Virus record (IMG/VR): IMGVR_UViG_2718218305_000006
Length of the DNA stretch: 64,000 nt
Strand: one strand, 5' to 3'
From: a virus
Taxonomy: Duplodnaviria; Heunggongvirae; Uroviricota; Caudoviricetes
Numbering within the stretch: the stretch's first letter is position 1; each line of letters opens with the position of its first letter. The notes beneath the pieces were generated by a model. The model saw only the letters and a program-made list of their open reading frames with translations. It had not been told where the DNA came from and did no database searches. A program made the position numbers and the translations under genes. Shown here one piece after another: positions 6,685-59,823 of the stretch.

Positions 6685-6900
6685 ATGTACCAGATGGAAA
6701 AAATCACAACGGGTGTGTCATACACCACGTCAGCGGTGGGGACGGGATACTGGTTACTGCAGCTGCTGGACAAAGTCTCTCCGTCCCAGTGGGTGGCGAT
6801 AGGTGTGCTGGGGAGTCTGCTGTTTGGCCTGCTGACGTATCTGACTAACCTGTATTTCAAAATTAAAGAGGACCGTCGCAAGGCTGCCCGGGGAGATTAG
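6685..6900 (+). CDS. S: class II holin (phage 21 S-like pinholin), dual-start
   Basis: 71 aa, [10 protein letters not shown].. with two in-frame Met codons (antiholin/holin pattern); resembles phage 21 S holin as recalled. Confidence 0.85.
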
Positions 6901-6903
6901 GTG

Positions 6904-7461: not shown

Positions 7462-7503
7462 GCTGGCTCGTTATCTGTTGCCGATAAATCCTGATAAATA
7501 TCC

Positions 7504-39560: not shown

Positions 39561-40118
39561 ATGAGCACTATTACCAGAGAACGCGCGGAGATTAAATCAT
39601 ACATCACAGGCTTCCTGAGCGACTCGGCGCACGATAACAAGTCTTCAGACAGCCTGCTGGCTAATGTGTTTCGTATCGCGCTGGCATCACTGGAAGCAGA
39701 GCCGATAGCAATGGTAGTGCCTGATGAAATGGATTTGCTTACCTGCCATCTCGACGGTGTAACTAAAACATATGCTGATGGCTGGAACGCCTGCCGCGTC
39801 GCCATGCTTCAGGCCGGAAACTTTCGGGAAAATAAGAATTCGTCAACCAACAATTTTCGGGAAATCTCGGAAACGTCAACCAGATCTCCGATAACTCTGG
39901 ATGGCTGGATAAGCTGTACTGAGCGAATGCCTGAAAAGAGCCAGAACGTGCTTATTTCGATGAATATCGATAGCGAGGCTGGGCCATTAATATATTCCGC
40001 ACGCTATCTCGGAGGCACGTTCCGGCGCGGAGGTATAGCAGTTAGTCCGGGTAATGATCTTAGGCAAGCAACCCACTGGATGTCGCTACCAGAACCGCCG
40101 CAGGAGGTGAATCAATGA
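39561..40118 (+). CDS. DUF551-like prophage protein
   Basis: C-terminal ..DGWISCTERMPE..THWMSLPEPP pattern typical of DUF551 as recalled. Confidence 0.5.
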   Translation: MSTITRERAEIKSYITGFLSDSAHDNKSSDSLLANVFRIALASLEAEPIAMVVPDEMDLLTCHLDGVTKTYADGWNACRVAMLQAGNFRENKNSSTNNFREISETSTRSPITLDGWISCTERMPEKSQNVLISMNIDSEAGPLIYSARYLGGTFRRGGIAVSPGNDLRQATHWMSLPEPPQEVNQ

Positions 40119-40408
40119 CCTGGCCTGAAGCATTCACAACGGTAGGAATTGCGATGGCGGTGGCGCTGGTGGTGTATTCGATTTGCCGCTGGGGATAAAA
40201 ACGGTTTGCGGGAAAAGGATAGTTAAGTAGAATTGCTGCGGGTGCTTGAGGCTATCTGCCTCGGGCATGAACACCAACGGCAGATAGAGAAAAGCCCCAG
40301 TTAACATTACGCGTCCTGCAAGACGCTTAACATTAATCTGAGGCTCAATCCATGCTGAACACATGTAGGTTAGCCTCTTACGTGCCGAAAGGCAAGGAGA
40401 AGCAGGCT

Positions 40409-40564
40409 ATGAAGCAGCAAAAGGCGATGTTAATCGCCCTGATCGTCATCTGTTTAACCGTCATAGTGACGGCACTGGTAACGAGGAAAGACCTCTGCGA
40501 GGTGCGAATCCGAACCGGTCAGACGGAGGTCGCTGTCTTCGTAGACTACGAATCTGAGAAGTAA
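40409..40564 (+). CDS. hok: Hok/Gef-family type I toxin (overlapping mok-like frame from 40352)
   Basis: MKQQKAMLIALIVICLTVIVTALVTRKDLCEVRIRTGQTEVAVFVDYESEK parallels Hok (..LTRKSLCEIRYRDG..EVAAFMAYE..). Confidence 0.7.
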   Translation: MKQQKAMLIALIVICLTVIVTALVTRKDLCEVRIRTGQTEVAVFVDYESEK

Positions 40565-40683
40565 GAGACCAGGCGGGGGAGTAATCTCCCGCCACCTCTG
40601 ATGTGTCAGGCATCCTCAACGCACCCGCGCTTTACCATACTGAAAATGCTGTTTGAATGTTCATCTCTGAAAGAGGACTATGA

Positions 40684-41028
40684 ATGAAAAAGGTATTGAT
40701 TGCAGCACTTATTTCCGGTGTGTCTTTTGGCGCTTTTGCACAGCAGGGTGGTTTCCAGGGGCCAGAAGCAGAGCGTTCAACAGTAGCGCAGGCAAAAGAA
40801 CTGAAGGATGATGCATGGGTTATCCTTGAAGGGAGCATCGTTAAAAAAGTGGGTGATGAACGTTATGAGTTTCGTGACAATAGCGGGACAATTGTCACGG
40901 ATATTGATGACAGCGTATGGGCCGGGCAGAATGTTTCTCCGAAAGACAAAGTAAGAATTGAGGGTGAAATTGATAAAGACCTGAGCAGTGTTGAAGTTGA
41001 TGTAAAGGCACTGAAATTATTAAAGTAA
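40684..41028 (+). CDS. YgiW/YdeI (BOF) family periplasmic OB-fold protein
   Basis: Signal peptide MKKVLIAALISGVSFGAFA then ..ILEGSIVKKVGDERYEFRDNSGTI.. Confidence 0.7.
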   Translation: MKKVLIAALISGVSFGAFAQQGGFQGPEAERSTVAQAKELKDDAWVILEGSIVKKVGDERYEFRDNSGTIVTDIDDSVWAGQNVSPKDKVRIEGEIDKDLSSVEVDVKALKLLK

Positions 41029-41149
41029 CCGCCCCTGCTTGTTAAGCCCGTCTTACTGACGGGTTTTCTGTTTGTACATTCCGGCGTATTGCCTTACAAT
41101 TCGCGCAGTCAGCCTGAACAACTGACACCTGCTGTCACCGGAGAATCCG

Positions 41150-41422
41150 ATGACACAACACATAAAATCCCACAATTCTGAAGCCGACCCGGAAATTAAG
41201 CAGGGGAGGCGTTTTCGTGCGCCTCAGTATGGCTGGTTTCACTATCTGTTCTGTACGATCGATGAGGCAGATATGCTTCAAGAGGCGTATCTGCGTCGCG
41301 GTGTCCGTGTGGAGCGGAGTCTGAACGCTGATCGTCTGACCTGGACCGTTTCTGTATATCTTCCTGTTCGTGCACATCTGCCACGGACACATGCCTGCTA
41401 CCGTCAGCGCGTCTGGAGGTAA
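41150..41422 (+). CDS. hypothetical protein (90 aa) upstream of DUF968 gene
   Basis: Same slot and similar pattern as 215..493. Confidence 0.35.
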   Translation: MTQHIKSHNSEADPEIKQGRRFRAPQYGWFHYLFCTIDEADMLQEAYLRRGVRVERSLNADRLTWTVSVYLPVRAHLPRTHACYRQRVWR

Positions 41423-42473
41423 TGTGCGGGTATTACTTCGACCTGTTCTGGTTCCGGAACTCGGGCTGGTGGTCCTTAAGCCCGGTCGTGAATCATTGCC
41501 AGTTTTTCATCGCGGCAGGGTGCTGGTGGAGCCGGAACCGAAAAACATGCGGGCGCTGCCATCTGGAGCGGTTCCTGCTGTTCGCCAGCCGCTGGCGGAA
41601 GATAAATCACTGCTGCCATTTTTCAGCGATGAGCGGGTGATTCGTGCAGCTGGCGGCGCTGGTGCACTGTCTGACTGGTTATTACGTCACGTGAAATCCT
41701 GCCAGTGGCCACACGGCGATTATCATCACAGCGAAACCGTTATTCACAGTTACGGTGCTGGCGCAATGGTGTTGTGCTGGCACTGCGACAACCAGCTGCG
41801 CGACCAGACCTCCGAATCACTTGAGCAACTTACTCAACAAAATCTGACAGCCTGGATGATTGACGTCATACGCCATGTAATGAATGGCACGCAGGAGCGG
41901 GAATTATCGCTGGCTGAATTATCCTGGTGGGCAGTCTGCAATCAGGTGGTGGACGCATTACCTGAGGCAGTATCGCGTCGCTCTCTGGGATTACCGGCGG
42001 AAAAAATCCGCTCCGTATACCGTGAAAGCGACATCATACCGGGAGAACAGACCGCCACCAGCATACTGAAGCAGCGCACAAAAAATATTGCGCTACCGCC
42101 TCACACCCACCAGCAACAGAACCCACCACAGGAAAAGACGGTGGTCAGCATTGCCGTTGATCCGGAGTCTCCGGAATCCTTCATGAAACGACCTAAACGT
42201 CGCCGCTGGGTAAATGAGAAATACACACGCTGGGTAAAGACACAGCCGTGTGCGTGTTGTGGTAAGCCAGCGGACGATCCTCATCATCTGATTGGTCATG
42301 GTCAGGGCGGAATGGGAACAAAATCCCACGATATTTTCACGCTACCGCTGTGTCGGGAGCATCACAACGAGCTTCATGCGGATCCGCTGGCGTTCGAAGA
42401 AAAGCATGGTTCCCAGGTTGATTTAATTTTTCGTTTTCTTGATCACGCCTTTGCAACCGGCGTGCTCGGGTAA
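41370..42473 (+). CDS. DUF968-family prophage protein (YdfU-like)
   Basis: 367 aa; long stretches identical to 495..1559. Confidence 0.65.
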   Translation: MHICHGHMPATVSASGGNVRVLLRPVLVPELGLVVLKPGRESLPVFHRGRVLVEPEPKNMRALPSGAVPAVRQPLAEDKSLLPFFSDERVIRAAGGAGALSDWLLRHVKSCQWPHGDYHHSETVIHSYGAGAMVLCWHCDNQLRDQTSESLEQLTQQNLTAWMIDVIRHVMNGTQERELSLAELSWWAVCNQVVDALPEAVSRRSLGLPAEKIRSVYRESDIIPGEQTATSILKQRTKNIALPPHTHQQQNPPQEKTVVSIAVDPESPESFMKRPKRRRWVNEKYTRWVKTQPCACCGKPADDPHHLIGHGQGGMGTKSHDIFTLPLCREHHNELHADPLAFEEKHGSQVDLIFRFLDHAFATGVLG

Positions 42474-42485
42474 AAGAGGTTACTG

Positions 42486-42791
42486 ATGCGTATAGAGTTT
42501 GTTTTGCCTTACCCGCCGACGGTGAACACCTACTGGCGACGTCGTGGCAGCACATATTTTGTATCAAAAGCCGGTGAGCGTTATCGCCGGGATGTGGCAC
42601 TTATTGTTCGCCAGCAGCGGCTGAAATTAAACCTGTCCGGAAGGCTGGCGATAAAGATTATTGCAGAGCCACCGGATAAGCGCCGTCGTGACCTGGACAA
42701 TATCCTGAAAGCACCACTGGATGCGCTGACGCATGCCGGACTTCTCATAGACGACGAGCAGTTTGATGAAATCAATATTGTGCGCGGCTAG
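42486..42791 (+). CDS. rusA: RusA resolvase, truncated by premature TAG
   Basis: Identical to the copy-1 N-terminus up to ..EINIVRG then TAG where copy 1 has CAG; downstream frame still encodes ..LVSGGRLGVKIYKIESE. Confidence 0.75.
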   Translation: MRIEFVLPYPPTVNTYWRRRGSTYFVSKAGERYRRDVALIVRQQRLKLNLSGRLAIKIIAEPPDKRRRDLDNILKAPLDALTHAGLLIDDEQFDEINIVRG

Positions 42792-42841
42792 CTCGTTTCT
42801 GGTGGGCGGCTGGGCGTGAAGATTTACAAAATTGAAAGTGA

Positions 42842-43408
42842 GTGAGCATAAATATGATATACCCGGAAATTACAGGCAAAAGCGGTGAGCATTTACGCCT
42901 GAAAACGCTGGAAAGTGTCTGGATCCAGGGGAAACTGCGTATGTGGGGGCGTTGGTCGTATATTGGCGACGGTAAGACGGGAAATATGTTCAACCAATTA
43001 CTGACCTCTAAAAAGCTGACAAAAACGGCAATTAACGAGGCGCTCCGGAGGATGAAAAAAGCGGGTCTGGACAAACCTGAACTTGAGGCTTTTTTGCGGG
43101 ATATGATCAACGGCAATCAAAAAAGCTGGCTGGCACATTGTACCGATTCAGAGGCGTTAATAATCGATAGGGTTATTGGTGAAGTACTGGCAGGTTATCC
43201 CGGGCTGCTCAATGTTCTGAGTCAGCGTTATGTGGGGCGGGGGATGACTAAGCGCAAAATGGCTGAATTGCTGAATGATGCACATCCGGAATGGAGTTTA
43301 AGAACCTGTGAAAGACGCATTGAGCATTGGCTAAAGGTGGCAGAATTTATTTTGTACAAACCAATGGTTATGGCTTTTGGTATAGAGAAAAAAGTTATTG
43401 CTTTTTGA
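42842..43408 (+). CDS. late-gene antiterminator Q-like protein
   Basis: 188 aa; N-terminal two-thirds near-identical to 1922..2488, C-terminus diverged; followed by conserved element and terminator. Confidence 0.75.
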   Translation: MSINMIYPEITGKSGEHLRLKTLESVWIQGKLRMWGRWSYIGDGKTGNMFNQLLTSKKLTKTAINEALRRMKKAGLDKPELEAFLRDMINGNQKSWLAHCTDSEALIIDRVIGEVLAGYPGLLNVLSQRYVGRGMTKRKMAELLNDAHPEWSLRTCERRIEHWLKVAEFILYKPMVMAFGIEKKVIAF

Positions 43409-43487
43409 CGTAAAAACTGCTTCAATTCCGGTAAGCTTCGCAAAGCTGTACCGCGAGGCGAATAGCAGACATGGACATTTGAAAGAG

Positions 43488-43509
43488 CCCGCTTTTTGCG
43501 GGTTTTTTT
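43488..43509 (+). terminator. rho-independent terminator (tR'-like)
   Basis: CCCGC-TTTTT-GCGGG followed by a T7 run about 80 nt after Q. Confidence 0.5.
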
Positions 43510-43632
43510 ATGACTGAAAAACGGCACGGGGCGTTAAACGCGCTGGTGGTTGCTAATACCGGTCTTTCAACTTGCTGGCTTTTTCGACAAGAGTTATTGG
43601 TATGTCACGTTAACCGGAAAAGGGAAAAAGAC

Positions 43633-43830
43633 ATGCTAAAACAGCAGGATATGACAGAAACCGCCAGAGTGGTGTTTAATGAATTAAGCGTTACCGAACC
43701 GGCGACAGTCGGGGAGATTGCGCAGAATACTTACCTTTCACGCGAACGCTGCCAGTTAATACTGACCCAGCTGGTTATGGCGGGTCTGGCAGACTATCAG
43801 TGCGGTTGTTACAGACGCATTCAGTCCTGA
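43633..43830 (+). CDS. small hypothetical protein (65 aa), possible winged-helix
   Basis: Internal ATG with purine-rich RBS; ..TVGEIAQNTYLSRERCQLILTQLVMAG.. Confidence 0.35.
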   Translation: MLKQQDMTETARVVFNELSVTEPATVGEIAQNTYLSRERCQLILTQLVMAGLADYQCGCYRRIQS

Positions 43831-43965
43831 AGGCTTTTTATTTGTGGTAAATGGGCGGCTGGTGGGGGGGGCGGCACCTGTCAGTCCTTTGCTTATGTGT
43901 TGATGATAATTTACCTTTTGGGGCTATAATTGAGCTAACCAATTGCTAATGAAAGTAAAATTATA

Positions 43966-44679
43966 ATGGCTGTTGTCTGTTCAGTTATCATGGTTTGCTC
44001 CCCAATTAATATTTTTCTTGAAAAGGATACGTTGTCACTTAAGCCAGGCTCAGTCGTTCTGGCCACCAAATGCATCAGGGAGCTTTTCCTTATGCATTAT
44101 GGCAAAGTTAAAATTGTCGATATAAGCGAATCCGTCGTAAGTCAATATCTGGAAAGTCAGCATAAGCTGACGAGGACTCGTCTGACTGACATTCCGCTTT
44201 ACCTGTTGCTGGAACCCAACAATCCTGCGTTGGCTGCGGCTTTAATTACCAGCCAGGGATTTTCCGGAGAGGTCACGGATATGTTTCTTATGATGGCCTG
44301 CCTGTCTCTGTTTGAAACAGATGAACGGATGTCATTGTTTTTAAGTGGATGTTTATCCAGCATAAGTGCCAAAGTCAGGGCGATAATTCAGACAGATATA
44401 TCAGCAAGCTGGACGCTTGGTGCGATTGCTCTACAGTTGCATATGAGTGAGAGTTTGTTAAAGACAAAACTGAAAAATGAAGGGGGCATGTTCAGTCGCT
44501 TGTTGCTGGAAGAGCGGATGCGTGTTGCTGTAAATATGTTATGTTCCCGGTATGGATATGGACAGGCTGTAGCAGAAAAATGTGGTTATTCAAGCCGGTC
44601 CTACTTTATTTCTGTATTTCACCGCTATTATGGCTTCCCGCCAGACAGATATGTATCCAGGCAAGGGCTTGATTATTGA
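43966..44679 (+). CDS. AraC-family transcriptional regulator
   Basis: C-terminal AraC HTH (..SWTLGAIALQLHMSESLLKTKLK..RSYFISVFHRYYGFPP); located between Q and the tRNA genes. Confidence 0.7.
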   Translation: MAVVCSVIMVCSPINIFLEKDTLSLKPGSVVLATKCIRELFLMHYGKVKIVDISESVVSQYLESQHKLTRTRLTDIPLYLLLEPNNPALAAALITSQGFSGEVTDMFLMMACLSLFETDERMSLFLSGCLSSISAKVRAIIQTDISASWTLGAIALQLHMSESLLKTKLKNEGGMFSRLLLEERMRVAVNMLCSRYGYGQAVAEKCGYSSRSYFISVFHRYYGFPPDRYVSRQGLDY

Positions 44680-44707
44680 TTTTCATCTGATTATTATTTT
44701 TTGGCTC

Positions 44708-44783
44708 GGCCCTTTAGCTCAGTGGTGAGAGCGAGCGACTCATAATCGCCAGGTCGCTGGTTCAAATCCAGCAAGGGCCACCA
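44708..44783 (+). tRNA. tRNA with CAT anticodon (ileZ-like tRNA-Ile2 or tRNA-Met)
   Basis: Cloverleaf: acceptor GGCCCTT/AAGGGCC, anticodon loop CTCATAA, T-loop GGTTCAAATCC, 3' CCA encoded. Confidence 0.8.
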
Positions 44784-44790
44784 TCACAAA

Positions 44791-44870
44791 CCGCCATTAG
44801 CTTATCAGGAAGAGCAGACGACACCATAACAGGGTTGTTGGTGCGGGGCCGGGTCCCCGATGGCGGTCCA
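44791..44870 (+). other. degenerate tRNA-like element between the two tRNAs
   Basis: Perfect 7-bp acceptor pairing CCGCCAT/ATGGCGG, D-stem and CGGGG/CCCCG T-stem, but 6-nt T-loop and no standard 7-nt anticodon loop. Confidence 0.25.
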
Positions 44871-44883
44871 TTATCGGTATTCT

Positions 44884-44960
44884 GCGTTGTTAGCTCAGCC
44901 GGACAGAGCAATTGCCTTCTAAGCAATCGGTCAGTGGTTCGACTCCACTACAACGCGCCA
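44884..44960 (+). tRNA. tRNA-Arg (anticodon TCT, argO-like)
   Basis: Acceptor GCGTTGT/ACAACGC, anticodon loop CTTCTAA, T-loop GGTTCGACTCC, CCA encoded. Confidence 0.85.
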
Positions 44961-44973
44961 CACTTATTTTCCA

Positions 44974-44997
44974 GGCTCGCTTCGGCGGGCCTTTTTT
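44974..44997 (+). terminator. rho-independent terminator after tRNA-Arg
   Basis: GGCTCGC-TTCG-GCGGGCC followed by TTTTTT. Confidence 0.55.
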
Positions 44998-45129
44998 GTA
45001 TCTGCGCCACGCCCGGCGCATACCAACCACAGAGCCTTTCGGGGGTGAGCTTACGGAGTGGTCAGTGTGACTTTCTCTGTGGGCAGATCGCTCCCGGGCG
45101 TTGGCTCACCCACCCAAAGGAACGTCACG

Positions 45130-45561
45130 ATGTTTGGAATCTTCAAAAAGAAAACCCGCAGAGCGGCAACGGAAATTAAAAAGTTTGAAAAACGCGATCT
45201 GGCACAGGTGGTGATTAACGCCGCATACCTGGTGGCCTGTGCAGATGGTGAATGTGAGGCATCCGAGAAAGCGAAGATCGAACAGGTACTGCGTAATCAG
45301 CCTGCGCTGTCCGCGTTTACGTCAGAAATTAATGCGATTAGCGCAACCATTATCGGTCAGCTGGATACGAACTTTAAAACTGGTCGTCGTGCGGCGTTAC
45401 GTGAGATTGAGGATGTGAAACACGATACGCGTGAAGCGGAAGATGTGCTGGATGTGGCGGTGGCCATTGCGGAGGCAGACGGCGAAATTGAGCCGGAAGA
45501 GCGCAAGGTGCTGGAAGAGATTGCCGGTGTTCTGGGTCTTCGTCTGGAGAATCACCTGTGA
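45130..45561 (+). CDS. TerB-like domain protein
   Basis: 143 aa from an internal ATG; paired ..ACADGECEASEKAKIEQVL.. and ..IAEADGEIEPEERKVLEEIAGVLGL.. motifs typical of TerB-like proteins. Confidence 0.5.
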   Translation: MFGIFKKKTRRAATEIKKFEKRDLAQVVINAAYLVACADGECEASEKAKIEQVLRNQPALSAFTSEINAISATIIGQLDTNFKTGRRAALREIEDVKHDTREAEDVLDVAVAIAEADGEIEPEERKVLEEIAGVLGLRLENHL

Positions 45562-45725
45562 CGGTAAAACTGCGCCTGGCTGTGGCTGCACTCCTGCTGT
45601 TTCTGGTGGTGATGGTGGATTTCACCAGCAGAATCATGTCGGTGCTGGCGGATGGGGTGCTGGTCTGCGGCATTGTGGTATTGCTGTGGCCGGTGATAAA
45701 AAGAAACAGCCTGCATAATGCTTGA
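45558..45725 (+). CDS. small membrane protein (55 aa), GTG start overlapping TerB-like stop
   Basis: VTVKLRLAVAALLLFLVVMVDF..VLVCGIVVLLWPV, two hydrophobic helices; below the ORF-track cutoff. Confidence 0.3.
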   Translation: MTVKLRLAVAALLLFLVVMVDFTSRIMSVLADGVLVCGIVVLLWPVIKRNSLHNA

Positions 45726-45759
45726 TTTTTTTGTTTGCTGTTTATTAAAAACACTTCTG

Positions 45760-45865
45760 CATGGTGAATCCCCCTGTGCGGAGGGGCGATCAGCAACCAG
45801 GTATATGGGATAATCGCGGATTCAGGTGCTGATACTGAATTCACCGGGAGGCACCCGGCACCATG
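45760..45865 (+). other. conserved 106-nt structured element upstream of nanS-p (copy 2)
   Basis: Same termini CATGGTG..CACCATG and core as 3660..3765, with a cluster of substitutions in the middle. Confidence 0.3.
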
Positions 45866-46038
45866 CTTTGCCACAAAAGTGTTGTTTCTGTTTTTCTCAA
45901 ACTATCATCGTTATCCCTTTATTTCCGGCTGCGCATGGCGCGGCTTTTTTTTACGACCAGCCACTGGCAGATGGTCATCCTGTGATTTGATTCCGGTTCC
46001 GGCTTTTTAACTCTGTTCCTGTACACGGGAGAAATTCG

Positions 46039-47889
46039 ATGTCGATTAAACATTATGATGTTGTCAGGGCGGCGTCGCCGTCAGACCTTGCGGAAAAGCT
46101 GACACACAAACTGAAAGAGGGCTGGCAGCCGTTTGGTAGTCCGGTGGCCATAACCCCTTATACCCTGATGCAGGCGATTACAGCAGAAGGTGATGTGGTG
46201 GTCAGTGGTGCAACTGAGCCGGATTGGTACTACGTCATCGTACTGGCCGGGCAGTCCAATGCCATGGCTTACGGTGAAGGGCTTCCGCTGCCGGATTCAT
46301 ACGATGCTCCGGATCCGCGCATTAAACAGCTGGCGCGCCGCAGTACAGTGACGCCGGGTGGGGCTGCCTGCAGATATAACGATATTATTCCGGCCGACCA
46401 CTGCCTGCATGATGTGCAGGATATGAGTACGCTGAATCATCCGAAGGCAGACCTGAGCAAAGGGCAGTACGGCTGTGTCGGCCAGGGGTTACATATTGCC
46501 AAAAAACTGCTCCCGTATATCCCGAATAACGCGGGGATCCTGCTGGTACCATGCTGTCGTGGTGGTTCGGCATTTACCCAGGGCGCGGAGGGGATATTCA
46601 GCGAGTCCACGGGGGCCAGCCAGGATTCGGCGCGCTGGGGTGTGGGTAAACCGTTATATCAGGACCTGATTGCGCGCACCAAAGCTGCATTACAGAAGAA
46701 CCCGAAAAATGTGTTGCTGGCGGTGTGCTGGATGCAGGGAGAGTTTGACATGAGCGCCGCCACCCACGCACAGCAACCTGCGCTGTTTACAGCCATGCTG
46801 ACACAGTTTCGTGCTGACCTCTCCGTGTTTAACGCGCAGTGCCATGGTGGCAGTGCTGCAGATGTGCCGTGGATTTGTGGTGACACGACGTATTACTGGA
46901 AAAATACATACGCTACCCAGTACGACACCGTGTACGGCGGGTATAAAAACAGGGAGAGTGAGGGCGTTTATTTTGTGCCCTTCATGACAGACGGTAACGG
47001 CGTCAATACCGCCACTAACGCGCCGGCAGAAGATCCGGATATTCCGGCATCAGGATATTACGGTGCGGCATCGAGAACGAATGGAAACCAGGTATCATCA
47101 AACCGCCCGACACATTTCAGTTCATGGGCGCGCAGGAGCATTATTCCGGATCGTCTGGCAACCGCTATTCTGAACGCAGCCGGGCGCACCTCAGCCTTCA
47201 TCAGTGGTAAGGCACCGGAAATCAAACCCTCGCCCGGCGGCAACACGCCATCGGGTCCGTCTGCAGATACGTCCGTTCGCACAATCTCCCTGCTGCCGGC
47301 AGCCGGAGAGGCTGCTGCGCAGGGCTGGAGCATTAAGGATGGCGGAATTCAGTTGTCAGATGGTGTATTTAAGATCACCAGGCAGAGCAATAAAACCTGG
47401 TCCCTGACGCATCCGGTGGATGACGCAATTACCCTGCTGACACAGGGCGGCAGACTGACCTGTAAGTTCCGCCTGTCAGGCGCACTGACCAACAATCAGT
47501 TCGGGCTGGGGATTTATCTGTATACGGACGCTCCCGTTCCTGATGGTGTGGCGATGACGGGTACCGGTAATCCGTTCCTGATGTCGTACTTCACTCAGAC
47601 CACTGACGGCAGAGTGAATCTGATGCATCACAGGAAAGCCGGAAACACGAAGCTGGGGGAGTTCGGCGATTACGGTAACGACTGGCAGACGCTGGAGCTG
47701 GTGTTCACCGCCGGCAGTGCCACGGTTACTCCGAAACTGAATGGAGTGGCTGGCCCGGCATTCCAGGTTATAAAAGACAGTCTGACACTGGGACTGAATG
47801 CGCTGACGCTGACGGATGTTACAAAAAATGCAGCGTATGGCGTTGAGATAGAAAGTCTGATGCTGGAGATAAATGCACCGGCAGCATAA
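46039..47889 (+). CDS. nanS-p: prophage sialate O-acetylesterase NanS-p paralogue
   Basis: 616 aa; MSIKHYDVVRAASPSDLA.. and VIVLAGQSNAMAYGEG; catalytic domain highly similar to 4033..5979, C-terminal domain diverged. Confidence 0.8.
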   Translation: MSIKHYDVVRAASPSDLAEKLTHKLKEGWQPFGSPVAITPYTLMQAITAEGDVVVSGATEPDWYYVIVLAGQSNAMAYGEGLPLPDSYDAPDPRIKQLARRSTVTPGGAACRYNDIIPADHCLHDVQDMSTLNHPKADLSKGQYGCVGQGLHIAKKLLPYIPNNAGILLVPCCRGGSAFTQGAEGIFSESTGASQDSARWGVGKPLYQDLIARTKAALQKNPKNVLLAVCWMQGEFDMSAATHAQQPALFTAMLTQFRADLSVFNAQCHGGSAADVPWICGDTTYYWKNTYATQYDTVYGGYKNRESEGVYFVPFMTDGNGVNTATNAPAEDPDIPASGYYGAASRTNGNQVSSNRPTHFSSWARRSIIPDRLATAILNAAGRTSAFISGKAPEIKPSPGGNTPSGPSADTSVRTISLLPAAGEAAAQGWSIKDGGIQLSDGVFKITRQSNKTWSLTHPVDDAITLLTQGGRLTCKFRLSGALTNNQFGLGIYLYTDAPVPDGVAMTGTGNPFLMSYFTQTTDGRVNLMHHRKAGNTKLGEFGDYGNDWQTLELVFTAGSATVTPKLNGVAGPAFQVIKDSLTLGLNALTLTDVTKNAAYGVEIESLMLEINAPAA

Positions 47890-48336
47890 TAAAAAAAGCC
47901 AGCGACTGACCTGAAAAAGAAGACGCTGGCTAAAAGGCCTTATATGTTTGTAGAGACTTATTTTTCACAGACAGCAATGATGCCTGTCAATATATTATCA
48001 ATATGCGGATTGTTTCAGTTACAGATGCTTTATTAAGGAAAAAAACAGCCAGCACTGACTTTCGGTGGAGAGGTGCTGGCTCAAAAGGATAGATGTACTT
48101 CACATGTTGCTTCTATATGGCAGTACATTTTCTGACAGACAGTGACGGATGTTGTCAAGATATTGTGTCATTTATAACCTGAATCGGGGGAGGCCGGAAT
48201 GTTATCTGGCATTTTTAGCAGAGCCTGAATGCCATAATCACGGCTCCCGGCGTTGGCCGTCAGTGGGTGACACTGGCGGCTTTTTTGTTTTCCTTTACTT
48301 TCATTTTCTGTCGGCGGTGACGGAGACATACATCAG

Positions 48337-48543
48337 ATGGAAAAAATCACAACGGGTGTGTCATACACCACGTCAGCGGTGGGGACGGGATACTGGTTAC
48401 TGCAGCTGCTGGACAAAGTCTCTCCGTCCCAGTGGGTGGCGATAGGCGTGCTGGGGAGTCTGCTGTTTGGGCTGCTGACATATCTGACGAACCTGTATTT
48501 CAAGATTAAAGAAGACCGGCGTAAGGCGGCGCGGGGAGAGTAA
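48337..48543 (+). CDS. S: class II holin (S-like), single start
   Basis: 68 aa MEKITTG..; the upstream in-frame Met codon seen in copy 1 is ATA here. Confidence 0.85.
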
Positions 48544-48547
48544 AGTG

Positions 48548-48892
48548 ATGAAGAAAAAATACGAACTGGTTGTTAAAGGGATAAATAATTACCCGGATAA
48601 GATTACTGTTACTGTGGCACTGGAAATTGGTGGGTATCCGTCACTGTTGTTGCCAGATGTGGCGATTAGTCTTGACCGTACTGAAGGTGCCACGCTGGAG
48701 TTTTACGAAGCTGAGGCGAAAAAGCAGGCGAAGCAGTTTTTCATGGATGTTGCTGCCGGGTTATGTGAAGGGGATGGTCCGTTACCGGAAAAGCGTCCCG
48801 TAATTTTAGAGGCGCAGGATGTGTTGATAACCTACAGAGGAAAACTACCGGGAATAATTACGGGTTCTCTGAAGACTCCACCGCTGGCCTGA
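48548..48892 (+). CDS. hypothetical protein inserted between holin and endolysin
   Basis: 114 aa, unrelated to the copy-1 insert at the same slot; no family recognised. Confidence 0.45.
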   Translation: MKKKYELVVKGINNYPDKITVTVALEIGGYPSLLLPDVAISLDRTEGATLEFYEAEAKKQAKQFFMDVAAGLCEGDGPLPEKRPVILEAQDVLITYRGKLPGIITGSLKTPPLA

Positions 48893-48942
48893 AGACTTAA
48901 CATATCCAGGGATTTGAAATCGATAAACCCTGATAAATATCC

Positions 48943-49476
48943 ATGAACGCAAAAATCAGATACGGCCTGTCGGCTGCCGTTCTGGCGCTGATTGGTGCAG
49001 GGGCGTCTGCGCCTGAAATCCTCGACCAGTTTCTGGATGAAAAGGAAGGTAACCACACCACAGCATACCGTGATGGTGCGGGTATCTGGACCATCTGCCG
49101 TGGAGCCACCCGGGTGGATGGTAAGCCTGTTATTCCTGGCATGAAGCTGTCGAAGGAAAAATGCGACCGGGTTAACGCCATTGAGCGTGATAAGGCGCTG
49201 GCATGGGTGGAGAAAAACATCAGAGTGCCACTGACCGAACCCCAGAAAGCGGGGATTGCGTCATTCTGTCCGTACAACATTGGCCCCGGTAAGTGTTTCC
49301 CGTCGACGTTTTACAGACGGATTAATGCAGGAGATCGAAAAGGTGCCTGCGAAGCTATTCGCTGGTGGATTAAGGACGGTGGCAGGGACTGCCGTATTCG
49401 CTCAAATAACTGTTACGGTCAGGTATCCCGTCGTGACCAGGAGAGCGCGCTGGCGTGCTGGGGAATCGACAGATAA
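48943..49476 (+). CDS. R: SAR endolysin (lysozyme R)
   Basis: 177 aa, near-identical to 7504..8037. Confidence 0.85.
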   Translation: MNAKIRYGLSAAVLALIGAGASAPEILDQFLDEKEGNHTTAYRDGAGIWTICRGATRVDGKPVIPGMKLSKEKCDRVNAIERDKALAWVEKNIRVPLTEPQKAGIASFCPYNIGPGKCFPSTFYRRINAGDRKGACEAIRWWIKDGGRDCRIRSNNCYGQVSRRDQESALACWGIDR

Positions 49477-49746
49477 GCAGAATATTTTGCTGAAAAATGC
49501 GGTTTGCTTACATGGACGGATAACACGAAATCCTGCAAATTGGCAAAATGTAAGTGAATAAAGTCAAAACAGTTGTTTAACACTCAGGCACCGTAATGAT
49601 GCCTTTGTCATTTCTGCGCATCTCACGCGCATCTCACAACACAGAACCTTTCAGGATGACCCTTGAGGATACCGGTTTGGCTGTCGGTGCCTTTCTGTGG
49701 GCTGGATTCCTGTGAGACAAGGTTCATCACTAAAAGGAAATAACCG

Positions 49747-50316
49747 ATGAATATGATGGCCGTGCCGTTTCACGGCAACTCTCTTTATGTAGTTAACCAT
49801 AATGGCGAACCATACGTTCCCATGAAACCTGTCGTTGCGGGGATGGGGCTGGCCTGGCAATCACAGTTGGCTAAGTTAAGACAGCGTTTTGCGTCAACTA
49901 TAACGGAAATCGTTATGGTTGCTGAGGATGGGAAACAACGCAATATGGTGTCCATGCCACTTCGAAAACTTGCCGGCTGGCTACAAACCATTAATCCCAA
50001 CAAAGTAAAACCCGAAATCCGCGATAAGGTCATCCGGTATCAGGAAGAGTGCGACGATGTTCTTTACGAGTACTGGACGAAGGGTTTTGTCGTTAATCCC
50101 CGTAAAATGAGCGTGATGGAAGAACTCAACCAGGCTTGTGCTGACATGAAACGGGATAAAAACATTGCCAGTGTGTTTGCTACCGGGCTGAATGAGTGGA
50201 AACAGGTTAAAGCCGCGCATGTATCAAAAATCCGTACGCTGGTAAATGAAGCGAATATGCTGATTGATTTTGTCCTGGCTGATACAGGCAAAGGGAAAAT
50301 AACAAAGGCGGATTGA
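49747..50316 (+). CDS. phage antirepressor-like protein (AntA/P22 AR N-terminal type)
   Basis: ..VPFHGNSLYVVNHNGEPYVPMKPVVAGMGLAWQSQLAKL.. antirepressor N-domain pattern; inserted between R and Rz. Confidence 0.6.
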   Translation: MNMMAVPFHGNSLYVVNHNGEPYVPMKPVVAGMGLAWQSQLAKLRQRFASTITEIVMVAEDGKQRNMVSMPLRKLAGWLQTINPNKVKPEIRDKVIRYQEECDDVLYEYWTKGFVVNPRKMSVMEELNQACADMKRDKNIASVFATGLNEWKQVKAAHVSKIRTLVNEANMLIDFVLADTGKGKITKAD

Positions 50317-50462
50317 TGGGGTGGCTAATGATATCAGATAAACTCATAACGCTGGTGAAGAGCCTCTGTGTACTTGTCGGCATTTCATTTTCACTAATGC
50401 TGGTTGCTCTTTTTCTTTCCATGGCCTGGATGGCGTTGACTTCGGCAGGGCTGGTGGGGTGA
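50316..50462 (+). CDS. small membrane protein (48 aa)
   Basis: ATG overlaps the antirepressor stop (TGATG) and its stop overlaps the Rz GTG; MGWLMISDKLITLVKSLCVLVGISFSLMLVALFLSMAWMALTSAGLVG. Confidence 0.25.
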   Translation: MGWLMISDKLITLVKSLCVLVGISFSLMLVALFLSMAWMALTSAGLVG

Positions 50463-50932
50463 GCATAAACCGAATGCTTTCCGCGTTTACCGTTATTCTG
50501 CTGGTGGTCTGTGGTGCGCTTAGTCTGGGGCTGAATCATTACCGCGATAACGCCATAACCTACAAAGAGCAGCGCGATAAAAAAGTCAGTGAGCTGGAGC
50601 TGGCAAATGCAACCATTACTGATATGCAGCAGCGCCAGCGTGATGTTGCTGCACTTGATGCCAGATACTCGAGGGAATTAGCTGATGCGAGAGCTGAAAA
50701 TGAAACTCTGCGTGCTGATGTTGCCGCTGGTCGTAAGCGCCTGCGCATCAACGCCAACTGTCCAGGCTCCTTGCGTAAAGCCCCCATCACCTCCGGCGTG
50801 GATAATGCAACCGGTCCCCGACTGGCAGAAGCCGCTGAACGGGATTATTTCATCCTCAGAGAACGGCTGATGGCAATGCAGAAGCAACTGGAAGGAGCAC
50901 AGGAATATATCCGTACCCAGTGTATACCGTGA
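50459..50932 (+). CDS. Rz: i-spanin Rz
   Basis: 157 aa, homologous to 8034..8501. Confidence 0.8.
   Translation: MSINRMLSAFTVILLVVCGALSLGLNHYRDNAITYKEQRDKKVSELELANATITDMQQRQRDVAALDARYSRELADARAENETLRADVAAGRKRLRINANCPGSLRKAPITSGVDNATGPRLAEAAERDYFILRERLMAMQKQLEGAQEYIRTQCIP
50700..50870 (+). CDS. Rz1: o-spanin Rz1, embedded in Rz
   Basis: [15 protein letters not shown] lipobox, embedded in the +1 frame. Confidence 0.65.
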   Translation: MKLCVLMLPLVVSACASTPTVQAPCVKPPSPPAWIMQPVPDWQKPLNGIISSSENG

Positions 50933-51395
50933 TGTTTTGTTACGAAGGTGTTACCGGTAACGTTAAGGTAATTTAACAAAGAGTCAGTTCCGGACTTTAT
51001 AGTGTGCTCAGTTCATGGCCAAAAACGATTTCTGTGATAAATATTTTGAATATTATTTACAGGTAAATGGAGTGGGGCACATGGATAGAAATATTACAAT
51101 AGAGTATGAAGTATATGCCCGTATTGTATGGGCAGAGAAGGCAAAAACATGGTAATTCCGTGTGTTGCCATGATACCTGACTGGCAGAATTGTTGTTTGG
51201 TTTTGAGTATATAGTCAGCGTCTTTTGTTCGGTAATTGCTCTTTCAATTAAAATGCCAGATATGATTTGCTTTTCTTTGTTGTTTAGTTTTTTTGTATAT
51301 TATTTTTATTGTTTTTATATAATTAGTTTTTTATTGTTGTCTTATTAAGGACGGTAAATTCAGGATGGCAGTCTGTAGATAAACGGAGGTTACTT

Positions 51396-51710
51396 ATGCT
51401 ACATGATCACCTGGCAGAATGTCTGGAGAAAAAAGGACTGTACCGGAGAGCAGCTGAACGATGGGCAAAAGTGATGGTACAGCTAAGTGATGACCAGAAA
51501 AGAAAAGTGGCGGCACAGAAACGAGCAGAGTGTTTGCGTAAGGCGCGCCGGACTCCGGTTTCACCGGTGAACCTGACCGAAATAAAACAAGCGGTCAACA
51601 GACTACATTCTGAGTTGGGAATGGGATTTGAAGAGCGGCGGGTATTCCGACGATATAAAGGGACAGGAGAACAGAATACGTCCGGAAACGCGCGGTCAAA
51701 AAAATGCTAA
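51396..51710 (+). CDS. PerC-family transcriptional activator (Pch-like)
   Basis: 104 aa, ..LAECLEKKGLYRRAAERWAKVM.. resembles PerC/Pch; preceded by a very AT-rich tract. Confidence 0.55.
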   Translation: MLHDHLAECLEKKGLYRRAAERWAKVMVQLSDDQKRKVAAQKRAECLRKARRTPVSPVNLTEIKQAVNRLHSELGMGFEERRVFRRYKGTGEQNTSGNARSKKC

Positions 51711-51791
51711 AAAATATCTGAGAGCGTTATTGCCTGTTACCATAAGAAAAAGCGACTTTAGTGGTCGCTTTTTGTGTCATATATAAGTCGT

Positions 51792-52016
51792 TTAAGTAAA
51801 CCTGTCTGAACAGGTTCTCTGGTCGTGTTTGTCTTTGTTGGGTACAAATTGAGAATATTTTTCATTAATTAATCTTCTTCTGCAGGCTTCAATAACCCAC
51901 GCTGAAAAATTTCCTGAACCTTTCAGATCAAGAGCGATGTTAATTTGTTCAATCATCTGGTTTGGAAATCGGATGTTGCGGGTTGTTGTTCTGCGGGTTC
52001 TGTTCTTTGATGACAT
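51792..52016 (-). CDS. YlcI/YnfO-family small protein (DUF3950-like)
   Basis: ..KNRTRRTTTRNIRFPNQMIEQINIALDLKGSGNFSAWVIEACRRRL.. matches recalled DLP12 YlcI. Confidence 0.5.
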   Translation of the reverse strand: MSSKNRTRRTTTRNIRFPNQMIEQINIALDLKGSGNFSAWVIEACRRRLINEKYSQFVPNKDKHDQRTCSDRFT

Positions 52017-52149
52017 AATGTTGCCCCATATTCAGTGTTGCTGATTTGTATTATCTGAAGTTGCTTTTACGTTAATTTGATGCAGATCAATTAATACGAT
52101 ACCTGCGTCATAATTGATTATTTGACGTGGTTTGATGGCGTAGATGCAC

Positions 52150-52400
52150 GTTGTGACATGTAGATGATAATTATTATCATTTTGCGGGTCCTTTCCGGCG
52201 ATCCGACCGGTTACGGGGCGGCGACCTCGCGGGTTTTCGCTATTTATGAAAATTTTCCGGGGAAAATCATGTCGGTACTTCTCGAACATAACTATTTGTT
52301 TTTTCTAATATCGAATCCGTAAAGGTCCGACATGAAAACGCCTGAAAAAGTCATTTTCGGGCACTTTCATGTCGGACCCTGTATTTGTTGTGAGACTGTT
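52150..52400. other. cos: lambda-type cos site (cosN with 12-nt cohesive end at 52206..52217, plus cosB)
   Basis: GGGCGGCGACCTCGCGGGTTTTCGCTATTTATGAAAATTTTCCGG matches the lambda left end; 197 nt upstream of Nu1. Confidence 0.65.
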
Positions 52401-52402
52401 TC

Positions 52403-52922
52403 ATGAAGGTTAATAAAAAGAAACTTGCCGAAATTTTCAACGTGGATCCGCGAACGATTGAACGCTGGCAGTCTCAGGGGCTCCCTTGCGTCTCCGGAGG
52501 TGGTAAGGGCGTTGAATCTGTATTTGATACCGCCACGGCAATTCAGTGGTATGCGCAGAGGGAAGCTGATATCGAAAATGAAAAACTCCGTAAAGAGGTT
52601 GAGGATTACAGGGCTGCCAGCGAGGCAGATCTCCAGCCTGGGACTATTGAGTACGAACGCCATCGACTTACGCGTGCGCAGGCTGACGCCCAGGAGCTGA
52701 AGAATGCCAGAGACTCCGCAGAAGTGGTGGAAACCGCATTCTGTACTTTCGTGCTGTCACGGATCGCAGGTGAAATTGCCAGTATTCTTGACGGGATCCC
52801 TCTCTCAGTACAGCGGCGTTTTCCGGAACTGGAAAACCGACATGTTGATTTCCTGAAACGGGATATTATCAAAGCCATGAACAAAGCAGCCGCGCTGGAT
52901 GAACTGATACCGGGGTTGCTGA

Positions 52923-52948
<26 letters not shown>
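52403..52948 (+). CDS. nu1: terminase small subunit Nu1
   Basis: 181 aa, [28 protein letters not shown].. near-identical to lambda Nu1 as recalled. Confidence 0.9.
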
Positions 52949-56629
<3,681 letters not shown>

Positions 56630-56649
<20 letters not shown>

Positions 56650-57949
56650 TCTCCCGCATATTGCCAGCATGGCTTTTAATGAGCCGCTGATGCTTGAACC
56701 CGCCTATGCGCGGGTTTTCTTTTGTGCGCTTGCAGGCCAGCTTGGGATCAGCCGCCTGACGGATGCAGTATCCGGCGACAGCCTGACTGCCGGAGAGGCA
56801 CCCGCGGCGCTGGCGTTATCCGGTGATGATGACGGACCACGACAGGCCCGGAGTTATCAGGTCATGAACGGCATCGCCGTGCTGCCGGTGTCCGGTACGC
56901 TGGTCAGCCGGACGCGGGCGCTGCAGCCGTATTCGGGAATGACCGGTTACAACGGCATTATCGCCCGTCTGCAACAGGCTGCCAGCGATCCGATGGTGGA
57001 CGGCATTCTGCTCGATATGGACACACCGGGCGGGATGGTGGCGGGAGCATTTGACTGTGCTGACATCATCGCCCGTGTGCGAGACATAAAACCGGTATGG
57101 GCGCTGGCCAACGACATGAACTGCAGTGCAGGTCAGCTGCTTGCCAGCGCCGCCTCCCGGCGTCTGGTCACGCAGACCGCCCGGACAGGCTCCATCGGCG
57201 TCATGATGGCTCACAGTAATTACGGTGCTGCCCTGGAGAAACAGGGCGTGGAAATCACGCTGATTTACAGCGGCAGCCATAAGGTGGATGGCAACCCCTA
57301 CAGCCATCTACCGGGTGATGTCCGGGAAACACTGCAGTCCCGGATGGATGCAACCCGCCGGATGTTTGCGCAGAAGGTGTCGGCATATACCGGCCTGTCC
57401 GTGCAGGCTGTGCTGGATACCGAGGCTGCAGTGTACAGCGGTCAGGAGGCCATTGATGCCGGACTGGCTGATGAACTTGTCAACAGCACCGATGCGATCA
57501 CCGTTATGCGTGATGCACTGGATGCACGTAAATCCCGTCTCTCAGGAGGGCGAATGACCAAAGAGACTCAATCAACAACTGTTTCAGCCACTGCTTCGCA
57601 GGCTGACGTTACTGGCGTGGTGCCAGCGACGGAGGGCGAAAACGCCAGCGCGGCGCAGCCGGACGTGAACGCGCAGATCACCGCTGCGGTTGCGGCAGAA
57701 AACAGCCGCATTATGGGGATCCTCAACTGTGAGGAGGCTCACGGACGCGAAGAACAGGCCCGCGTGCTGGCAGAAACCCCCGGTATGACCGTGGAAACGG
57801 CCCGCCGCATTCTGGCCGCAGCACCACAGAGTGCACAGGCGCGCAGTGATACTGCGCTGGATCGTCTGATGCAGGGGGCACCGGCACCGCTGGCTGCAGG
57901 TAACCCGGCATCTGATGCCGTTAACGATTTGCTGAACACACCAGTGTAA
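56630..57949 (+). CDS. C: head protease / minor capsid protein C (with nested scaffold Nu3 frame)
   Basis: GTG start giving VTAELRNLPHIASMAFNEPLML.. (lambda C), 439 aa. Confidence 0.85.
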
Positions 57950-57958
57950 GGGATGTTT

Positions 57959-58291
57959 ATGACGAGCAAAGAAACCTTTACCCATTACCAGCCGCTGGGC
58001 AACAGTGACCCGGCTCATACCGCAACCGCGCCCGGCGGATTGAGTGCGAAAGCGCCTGCAATGACCCCGCTGATGCTGGACACCTCCAGCCGTAAGCTGG
58101 TTGCGTGGGATGGCACCACCGACGGTGCTGCCGTTGGCATTCTTGCGGTTGCTGCTGACCAGACCAGCACCACGCTGACGTTCTACAAGTCCGGCACGTT
58201 CCGTTATGAGGATGTGCTCTGGCCGGAGGCTGCCAGCGACGAGACGAAAAAACGGACCGCGTTTGCCGGAACGGCAATCAGCATCGTTTAA
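57959..58291 (+). CDS. D: head decoration protein D
   Basis: 110 aa [27 protein letters not shown].. lambda gpD. Confidence 0.9.
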
Positions 58292-58346
58292 CCTGACCCT
58301 TCATCACTAAAGGCCGCCTGTGCGGCTTTTTTTACGGGATTTTTTT

Positions 58347-59372
58347 ATGTCGATGTACACAACCGCCCAACTGCTGGCGGCAAATGAGCAGAAATTTAAG
58401 TTTGATCCGCTGTTTCTGCGTCTCTTTTTCCGTGAGAGCTATCCCTTCACCACGGAGAAAGTCTATCTCTCACAAATTCCGGGACTGGTAAACATGGCGC
58501 TGTACGTTTCGCCGATTGTTTCCGGTGAGGTTATCCGTTCCCGTGGCGGCTCCACCTCTGAATTTACGCCGGGATATGTCAAGCCGAAGCATGAAGTGAA
58601 TCCGCAGATGACCCTGCGTCGCCTGCCGGATGAAGATCCGCAGAATCTGGCGGACCCGGCTTACCGCCGCCGTCGCATCATCATGCAGAACATGCGTGAC
58701 GAAGAGCTGGCCATTGCTCAGGTCGAAGAGATGCAGGCAGTTTCTGCCGTGCTCAAGGGCAAATACACCATGACCGGTGAAGCCTTCGATCCGGTTGAGG
58801 TGGATATGGGCCGCAGTGCGGCGAACAACATCACGCAGTCCGGCGGCACGGAGTGGAGCAAGCGTGACAAGTCCACGTATGACCCGACCGACGATATCGA
58901 AGCCTACGCGCTGAACGCCAGCGGCGTGGTGAATATCATCGTGTTTGACCCGAAAGGCTGGGCGCTGTTCCGTTCCTTCAAAGCCGTCAGGGAGAAGCTG
59001 GATACCCGTCGCGGCTCTCATTCCGAACTGGAGACAGCGGTAAAAGACCTGGGCAAAGCGGTGTCTTATAAGGGAATGTATGGCGATGTGGCCATCGTCG
59101 TGTATTCCGGACAGTACGTGGAAAACGGCGTCAAAAAGAACTTCCTGCCGGACAACACGATGGTGCTGGGGAACACTCAGGCACGCGGTCTGCGCACCTA
59201 TGGCTGCATTCAGGATGCGGACGCACAGCGCGAAGGCATTAACGCCTCTGCCCGTTACCCGAAAAACTGGGTGACCACCGGCGATCCGGCGCGTGAGTTC
59301 ACCATGATTCAGTCAGCACCGCTGATGCTGCTGGCTGACCCTGATGAGTTCGTGTCCGTACAACTGGCGTAA
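58347..59372 (+). CDS. E: major capsid protein E
   Basis: 341 aa MSMYTTAQLLAANEQKFKFDPLFLRLFF.. lambda gpE. Confidence 0.9.
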   Translation: MSMYTTAQLLAANEQKFKFDPLFLRLFFRESYPFTTEKVYLSQIPGLVNMALYVSPIVSGEVIRSRGGSTSEFTPGYVKPKHEVNPQMTLRRLPDEDPQNLADPAYRRRRIIMQNMRDEELAIAQVEEMQAVSAVLKGKYTMTGEAFDPVEVDMGRSAANNITQSGGTEWSKRDKSTYDPTDDIEAYALNASGVVNIIVFDPKGWALFRSFKAVREKLDTRRGSHSELETAVKDLGKAVSYKGMYGDVAIVVYSGQYVENGVKKNFLPDNTMVLGNTQARGLRTYGCIQDADAQREGINASARYPKNWVTTGDPAREFTMIQSAPLMLLADPDEFVSVQLA

Positions 59373-59413
59373 TCATGGCCCTTCGGGGCCATTGTTTTTC
59401 TGTGGAGGAGTCC

Positions 59414-59812
59414 ATGACGAAAGATGAACTGATTGCCCGTCTCCGCTCGCTGGGTGAACAACTGAACCGTGATGTCAGCCTGACGGGGACGAAAGAAGAA
59501 CTGGCGCTCCGTGTGGCAGAGCTGGAAGAGGAGCTTGATGACACGGATGAAACTGCCGGTCAGGACACCCCTCTCAGCCGGGAAAATGTGCTGACCGGAC
59601 ATGAAAATGAGGTGGGATCAGCGCAGCCGGATACCGTGATTCTGGATACGTCTGAACTGGTCACGGTCGTGGCACTGGTGAAGCTGCATACTGATGCACT
59701 TCACGTCACGCGGGATGAACCTGTGGCATTTGTGCTGCCGGGAACGGCGTTTCGTGTCTCTGCCGGTGTGGCAGCCGAAATGACAGAGCGCGGCCTGGCC
59801 AGAATGCAATAA
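59414..59812 (+). CDS. FI: DNA packaging protein FI
   Basis: 132 aa MTKDELIARLRSLGEQLNRDVSLTGTKEEL.. lambda FI. Confidence 0.85.
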   Translation: MTKDELIARLRSLGEQLNRDVSLTGTKEELALRVAELEEELDDTDETAGQDTPLSRENVLTGHENEVGSAQPDTVILDTSELVTVVALVKLHTDALHVTRDEPVAFVLPGTAFRVSAGVAAEMTERGLARMQ

Positions 59813-59823
59813 CGGGAGGCGCT

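Follow-up and report, generated by a model that had tools for sequence, protein, structure and literature searches.

The 114-aa open reading frame (ORF) between the holin gene S and the endolysin gene R of prophage 2 in the window (the whole 64,000-nucleotide stretch of DNA analyzed here) is almost certainly a genuine gene of the DUF1327/YdfR family carried by the O157:H7 lambdoid prophage Sp11. This gene and the ORF occupying the same slot in the neighboring prophage 1 are very probably complementary parts of one mosaic gene family resident between S and R. This corrects the reading of both S-R inserts, which would be parts of one mosaic gene with boundaries placed at the nucleotide level and not independent cargo. 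The full proposal for the gene, in which its identity and modular relationship are combined with a mechanism acting through RNase E or RNA, is judged only slightly better than an even chance. Table 1 lists the positions of the features discussed.

The six-frame list of ORFs places the start of the gene at ATG 48548 and the stop at TGA 48890-48892, with an in-frame GTG at 48545. The translated protein matches PF07041 (DUF1327) over aa 1-112 with 156.8 bits and an E value of 1.7e-46, compared with a gathering score of 25 bits for this model, and phrog_406 with an E value of 1.2e-64. The preliminary description had reported no recognizable motif in the product, which is wrong as the ORF belongs clearly to both families. 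The DNA is 100% identical to O157:H7 coding sequences named "YdfR family protein" in RefSeq (e.g. WP_000731241.1), and in O157:H7 Sakai, prophage Sp11 matches positions 40000-60000 of the window with 99.9% identity; its counterpart of the gene, ECs_2187, is annotated as a hypothetical protein. Eight codons differ between the gene and its counterpart in Stx2_95, six of them synonymously and two non-synonymously. The forward-strand ORF originally called at this position therefore stands, with an intact ATG-TGA frame, a family match, an exact DNA match, and mostly synonymous changes. No NCBIfam model matches the protein, and an Rfam search of positions 47800-51200 gave no match. The gene is counted as already known, and not as a new kind of element, because annotation already assigns it to the DUF1327/YdfR family.

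Table 1. Positions of the lysis cassette features, slot genes, and homologous segments. Positions are those of the window unless a contig is named.
Feature	Position	Strand	Evidence and remarks
ydfR-family gene (DUF1327)	48548-48892	+	114 aa; PF07041, phrog_406, WP_000731241.1, Sakai ECs_2187
N-terminal domain, aa 1-73	48548-48766	+	predicted strands 5-14, 18-27, 37-43 and helix 50-74 (AF2); part in common with K-12 YdfR
Tail module, aa 74-114	48767-48889	+	predicted unstructured, strongly conserved; missing in K-12 YdfR
Junction region, 9-bp direct repeat CTGAAGACT twice (48869-48877, 48889-48897), across stop codon	48869-48897	+	homology to long forms ends here
S, P21-type class II holin, 68 aa	48337-48543	+	Pfam Phage_holin_2_1 PF04971, E 7.3e-33; Sakai ECs_2188
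Shine-Dalgarno-like GGGGAGAG within S 3' end	48533-48540	+	read from sequence; would serve whichever gene comes after S
Conserved leader before R start, ending CTGATAAATATCC	48921-48942	+	common to prophage 1; blastn 48921-49469 versus 7482-8030
R, lysozyme-type endolysin, hydrophobic SAR-like N terminus	48943-49476	+	Phage_lysozyme PF00959, E 1.5e-24; E-x8-D-x5-T at aa 35-50
Antirepressor-like gene, P22_AR_N + ORF11CD3, GC 46%	49747-50316		between R and Rz
Rz	50459-50932		
Rz1, embedded in Rz	50685-50870		
Prophage-1 holin S, 71 aa, both starts (71-aa and 68-aa forms)	6685-6900	+	PF04971, E 8.5e-33
Prophage-1 slot ORF, 185 aa, helical-linker + C-terminal module of long YdfR-family genes	6904-7461	+	phrog_1085 positions 117-296, E 7e-112
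Prophage-1 endolysin R	7504-8037	+	ORF list; 92.7% aa identity to prophage-2 R
Match to Stx2_95 765-1314	48334-48883		95.8% DNA identity
Match to Stx2_95 1506-2061	6999-7560		94.3% DNA identity
Match to Stx2_12E129 1249-1644	6652-7047		96% DNA identity
Match to phage 86 2235-2352	48880-48994		89.0% DNA identity
Match to phage 86 828-1377	48334-48883		DNA match
Stand-alone DUF1327 N-domain loci	L009 3501-4076; L010 3501-3986; L011 3501-4024; L089 and L027 3501-4048		

The location of the gene between S and R is confirmed by the Pfam assignments of both neighbors, and the S/R pair presumably forms a pinholin and SAR-endolysin cassette of the phage 21 type. The cassette of Sp11 has the order S-ydfR-R-(ant)-Rz/Rz1. 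The ATG of ydfR lies 4 nt past the stop codon of S and is preceded by GGGGAGAG inside S, an arrangement of internal motif and start codon 3-5 nt past the S stop that is found also in prophage 1, 933W, and K-12 Qin. Consensus scans found nothing resembling a promoter on the + strand from S to the ORF, nor a convincing terminator downstream of the gene. A strong terminator-like hairpin is placed at 48255-48281 (+), ∼55 nt upstream of S and between the esterase gene at 46039-47889 and the lysis cassette, with 11 pairs of which 7 are G-C followed by TTTTTGTTTT; transcription of S, ydfR, and R would therefore need read-through or antitermination. The signals shared with S and the lack of a promoter or terminator in the S-R interval indicate that ydfR should share the late transcript of the lysis genes, and it is probably silent in the lysogen.

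The Sp11 holin has only the start of the 68-aa form, with the upstream codons reading ATA CAT CAG ATG (48328-48339) compared with ATG TAC CAG ATG (6685-6696) in prophage 1, so the longer 71-aa form would be missing from the Sp11 allele. In phage 21 the longer holin form is the antiholin. A second variable slot lies between R and Rz and is filled by an antirepressor-like gene in prophage 2 and in 933W, with none in prophage 1, where Rz (8016-8501) comes directly after R and overlaps it. The 616-aa ORF at 46039-47889 (+), upstream of S, encodes an esterase of the NanS-p type characteristic of Stx and lambdoid prophages, in which a SASA sialate O-acetylesterase domain is combined with DUF1737 and DUF6645; its diverged counterpart in prophage 1 is ∼72% identical (46216-47172 versus 4261-5217). 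Downstream of the lysis cassette a PchB-like ORF at 51396-51710 (+) occupies the position of Sakai ECs_2182, annotated as a PchABC family transcriptional regulator. Between both lysis cassettes, the window from ∼8500 to 40000 is not colinear with Sakai. Where the prophage-1 lysis genes would be expected in Sakai there are head genes of Sp12, so that the source strain departs from Sakai by several kb in this area.

The flanks of the slot had been described as near-identical in the two prophages. They are similar to a lesser degree, S having 94% nucleotide identity over 219 nt (98.5% at the amino acid level) and R 89.8% over 549 nt (92.7%). Alignment of both S-R intervals by blastn, which the preliminary description had called for, bounds the variable segment sharply at 48552/48553 on the left and 48920/48921 on the right. 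Both ORFs open with the same ATGAA 3-4 nt past the S stop, behind GGGGAGA(G/T) in S. Direct pairwise comparison of the 114-aa and 185-aa ORFs gave no significant alignment, and to this extent the earlier statement that the two inserts are unrelated is correct. It fails at the level of the family, as both ORFs match a single profile, phrog_1085, whose 296 positions divide into 1-113 for the prophage-2 ORF and 117-296 for the prophage-1 ORF, and in Stx2_95, as in phage 86, one gene contains counterparts of both.

Stx2_95, a Stx2a phage, has one ORF of 329 aa (BCI50300.1) between S and R, in which alignment shows the first 113 aa to be 97% identical to the prophage-2 ORF and the last ∼150 aa to be essentially the prophage-1 ORF. 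In the Stx2 phage 86 the corresponding product, gp05, is a "YdfR family protein" of 268 aa with about 95% identity to the prophage-2 ORF over aa 1-113, and an ORF of 104 aa on the reverse strand separates its gene from R. The DNA of both is colinear with prophage 2 from S to codon 112. Unlike the prophage-2 ORF, both genes run on into helical linker repeats and a C-terminal domain of ∼115-150 aa, the part that prophage 1 carries alone. Prophage 2 is without ∼857 bp of phage 86 (1378-2234), a stretch in which the long gene's C-terminal half lies together with the reverse-strand ORF. A C-terminal extension is present also in proteins of 176-183 aa named YdfR family; in one of these (P0007, 183 aa) this tail matches aa 3-60 of the prophage-1 ORF with 57% identity. 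The 329-aa ORF of Stx2_95 is unlikely to be an artifact because independent records carry forms of 268, 263, 287, 330, and 385 aa. The reverse-strand 104-aa ORF (phrog_1853) lies between the long YdfR-family gene and R in both phage 86 (L003 1858-2172, − strand) and Stx2_12E129 (L004 2154-2468, − strand), and it is missing from both cassettes of the window.

The slot thus occurs with the N-terminal domain only and a different tail (K-12 Qin), with the N-terminal domain and tail (prophage 2, H-19B, and YYZ-2008), with N-terminal domain, tail, linker, and C-terminal domain (329 aa in Stx2_95 and 268 aa in phage 86), with linker and C-terminal domain only (prophage 1), and empty (933W). The preliminary description had argued for exchange of two unrelated cargo genes by cassette swapping at a hotspot, a reading in keeping with the sharp homology edges and the lack of pairwise similarity between the ORFs. 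It is considered extremely improbable, being contradicted by Stx2_95 and phage 86, where a single gene contains both inserts as segments, by the one PHROG profile that covers them both, and by the start codon context that they have in common. The split phrog_1085 match, the single long genes, and the shared start point instead to module shuffling or deletion within a resident mosaic gene; from the alignments, a deletion leading from the long to the short form and a fusion involving the short form both fit.

The absence of this stretch relative to phage 86 raises the question of whether the 114-aa gene is a non-functional remnant, the truncated rest of a long gene that is drifting to loss. The last residues and the stop codon arise at the repeat-flanked junction where the ∼857 bp are missing, and there are other signs of decay or variation in Sp11, such as the holin without its upstream start. 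However, the 114-aa form with S and R on either side is the commonest architecture in a tblastn census of viral contigs carrying the domain (31/80, a sample biased by the retrieval route), and its protein clusters contain 759 and 464 member sequences. The gene is present in the inducible phages H-19B and YYZ-2008 and in Stx1a phages, its differences from Stx2_95 are mostly synonymous, and many positions of the tail are invariant. Decay is accordingly regarded as very unlikely to explain the short form.

The same census found the 263-aa form in 13 of the 80 contigs and single cases of 110 to 385 aa, and in 75 of the 80 the DUF1327-domain gene lies in an S-R context or adjoins S or R. By megablast, related DNA is present in 2923 of 5426 complete E. 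coli genomes; the match spans at least 80% of the gene in 1257 of these 2923, with up to eight places in some O157 genomes. The stretch from S through the ORF to R is 97-98.6% identical at the DNA level in YYZ-2008, H-19B, and many Stx1a, Stx2a, and Stx2c phages. The S-R intervals of H-19B, YYZ-2008, and the Stx1a phages belong to the same allele class as the gene studied here, with this identity extending from S across the 114-codon gene into the start of R; in H-19B the 114-codon ORF is present but left unannotated and has no notable difference from that of prophage 2. The DUF1327 family is narrow in a profile search, forming 91 clusters at 50% identity among 1.84 billion representative proteins, and the family matches with a named source are all from Escherichia or Shigella. 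The odd family members P0001, P0038, and P0010 comprise a 196-aa form with the N-terminal domain duplicated internally, a 155-aa form with the tail swapped for a piece matching Pfam ANT (PF03374), and fused holin-YdfR gene calls of 184-187 aa. These duplicated, ANT-bearing, and holin-fused members could be real rearrangements or artifacts of assembly or frameshifting. The preliminary description would have given up the accessory reading for a widespread, conserved lysis cassette component with a known role; the gene is widespread and conserved in the cassette (K-12 Qin, H-19B, YYZ-2008, Stx phages, and the E. coli genomes above), but no established role accompanies it.

In the lytic Stx2 phage 933W the R gene starts 4 nt past the S stop with nothing between, in the same position that ydfR has here, and lysis can therefore do without ydfR. 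The gene is not present wherever the S/R pair is functional, since the 933W slot is empty and prophage 1 is without the DUF1327 domain. The empty slot and the base composition of the ORF (GC 47% versus 55% for S and R) uphold the earlier view of a variable slot whose gene is accessory and not part of the lysis core. A cytoplasmic regulator of lysis timing, acting on the pinholin or the SAR endolysin, would follow a logic analogous to that of T4 RIII, a small cytoplasmic antiholin cofactor. Such a role would suit the S-R position and shared translation signals, which are kept from K-12 Qin to the Stx phages, and the high proportion of viral contigs with the gene in or next to this context. It is less easily reconciled with the lysis of 933W without the gene and with the same spacing from S to the next gene, with the absence of a membrane segment from the protein, with the retention of the slot by a prophage-1 form lacking the entire DUF1327 domain, and with distant homologues that lie in tail modules and not in lysis cassettes; by analogy a timing function is conceivable but unlikely.

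The distant relatives are stand-alone versions of the N-terminal domain with 72-76 aa, found outside lysis cassettes in five viral contigs. In four of the five the gene is directly after an ORF of 192-217 aa, which itself follows a gpK-like JAB + NlpC/P60 tail gene, and in the fifth (L010) it lies in a differently ordered tail-like region. A profile search of genome contigs for distant homologues found nothing; it was the viral contig searches that gave matches. All five stand-alone versions are followed by a convergent ORF of 79-110 aa. A conserved two-gene cassette composed of DUF1327 and the convergent ORF was considered and rejected, as the partners do not align with each other and belong to different PHROGs (phrog_1853, 10490, and 25324); comparison of the convergent partners with phage 86 gp06 likewise gave no alignment. 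The dispensability for lysis and the presence of the stand-alone domain in tail modules both argue against a direct lysis role.

An accessory gene of the "moron" type would have a role in host fitness, exclusion, defense, or counter-defense apart from RNase E, with the lysis cassette merely tolerating insertions. The deviant base composition, the presence/absence and module polymorphism of the slot, the narrowness of the family, and the stand-alone homologues in the quite different setting of the tail gene region, each with a convergent small ORF after it, are all consistent with such a gene. A promoter or terminator of its own was not found by consensus scans, and its translation signals are common with S, so it is probably silent in the lysogen. 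Comparison of PADLOC defense models with the 114-aa, 185-aa, and 329-aa proteins gave no match at E values up to 0.01, and the convergent partners, being from different families, do not constitute a conserved two-gene system. A moron function is given a modest chance, well below even.

The 114-aa protein has a pI of 5.5, a GRAVY of −0.03, and a maximum 19-residue Kyte-Doolittle mean of 1.18. The hydropathy profile contains no transmembrane segment of the kind expected of a holin or antiholin, the N-terminal domain is soluble in the AF2 model, and the product is predicted to be soluble and mildly acidic. The AF2 model of the N-terminal domain, calculated with 25 diverse homologues aligned, has a mean pLDDT of 89.4 and a pTM of 0.76 and consists of three antiparallel strands packed on one long helix (β-β-β-α). 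The full-length model from a shallow alignment is poor (pLDDT 60), with values below 50 for aa 74-114. This tail has many invariant residues at aa 80-109 in the family alignment, and conservation in a segment predicted to be unstructured is a pattern typical of a partner-binding segment, suggesting that the tail may act as one. A Foldseek comparison with viral models (BFVD), as had been recommended, gave no match with an E value below 0.001, and a sequence search of the PDB gave no match (best E value 0.6). Nucleic acid-binding domains are enriched in the non-specific fold searches, which is a weak hint at such a function for the predicted fold.

The K-12 family member YdfR (b1555, P76160) is encoded in the Qin prophage in the same slot (essQ-ydfR-rrrQ-rzpQ/rzoQ) and contains DUF1327, and its gene starts a few nucleotides past the holin stop behind GGAGAG as in prophage 2; the gene studied here shares with this type member the holin-lysozyme location in a lambdoid prophage. 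The two proteins are 47% identical over aa 1-74, where the alignment ends. K-12 YdfR has 103 aa with an unrelated C-terminal tail, and its stop codon overlaps the rrrQ start, whereas the O157 protein has a conserved 41-aa tail that is missing in K-12 YdfR.

K-12 YdfR was recovered in a bacterial two-hybrid screen (Göpel et al., RNA Biol 2026, PMC13232886). In that work the partner of full-length YdfR is Rne 1-597 (the catalytic half of RNase E, at its N terminus), residues 1-72 are enough for the interaction, and Rne 1-598 co-elutes with Strep-tagged YdfR (PMC13232886). DNase-resistant nucleic acid co-purifies with the protein, a contaminating protein as the RNA carrier not being excluded by the authors, and overexpression altered few transcripts and left growth unaffected (PMC13232886). 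Residues 1-72 of K-12 YdfR are the part conserved in the O157 protein, and the comparison links the O157 and Stx phage alleles to a single experimental lead, the binding of RNase E and RNA by K-12 YdfR. A literature search on DUF1327, ECs2187, ydfR, essQ, and Qin found no experimental source beyond this study; the mention of DUF1327 in a genomics paper is unrelated, ECs2187 gave no paper, and the main text of an envelope screen paper cited for ydfR does not mention the gene.

By analogy with K-12 YdfR, the N-terminal domain of the O157 protein would serve to dock onto a target in the host cytoplasm, for which RNase E (its catalytic N-terminal half), RNA, or both are the only candidates with experimental support, and the tail and C-terminal modules would be exchangeable parts that bind partners. 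The protein, made late with the lysis proteins, would then modulate RNA decay in the host, or what becomes of the long late transcript, and not lysis. The evidence for RNase E is limited for the O157 allele because the interaction is shown only for the K-12 paralogue, with its 47% N-terminal domain identity and different tail, and the docking mechanism is proposed tentatively for the O157 protein, at clearly less than even confidence. The more general proposal, that the DUF1327 N-terminal domain is a phage-borne adaptor for RNase E and/or RNA with exchangeable C-terminal modules, co-produced with the lysis proteins, is doubtful. If true, Shiga toxin phages would have a previously unrecognized class of proteins that are expressed late and modulate RNA decay in the host, and the long late transcript, on which stx also lies in these phages, could change in stability. 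Because many Stx1 and Stx2 phages have the gene on their late transcript, such a role in RNA decay, speculative as it is, would be testable and medically relevant.

Phage-encoded modulators of RNase E include T7 gp0.7, phiKZ Dip, and T4 Srd. No sequence or fold similarity between these proteins and the gene product studied here was found. The possible relationship is one of functional analogy only, that of a small phage protein contacting RNase E, and is a lead with no implication of family membership. T7 gp0.7, phiKZ Dip, and T4 Srd are the products of early or middle genes, and in a noticeable difference from these the Sp11 gene is placed in the late lysis transcript.
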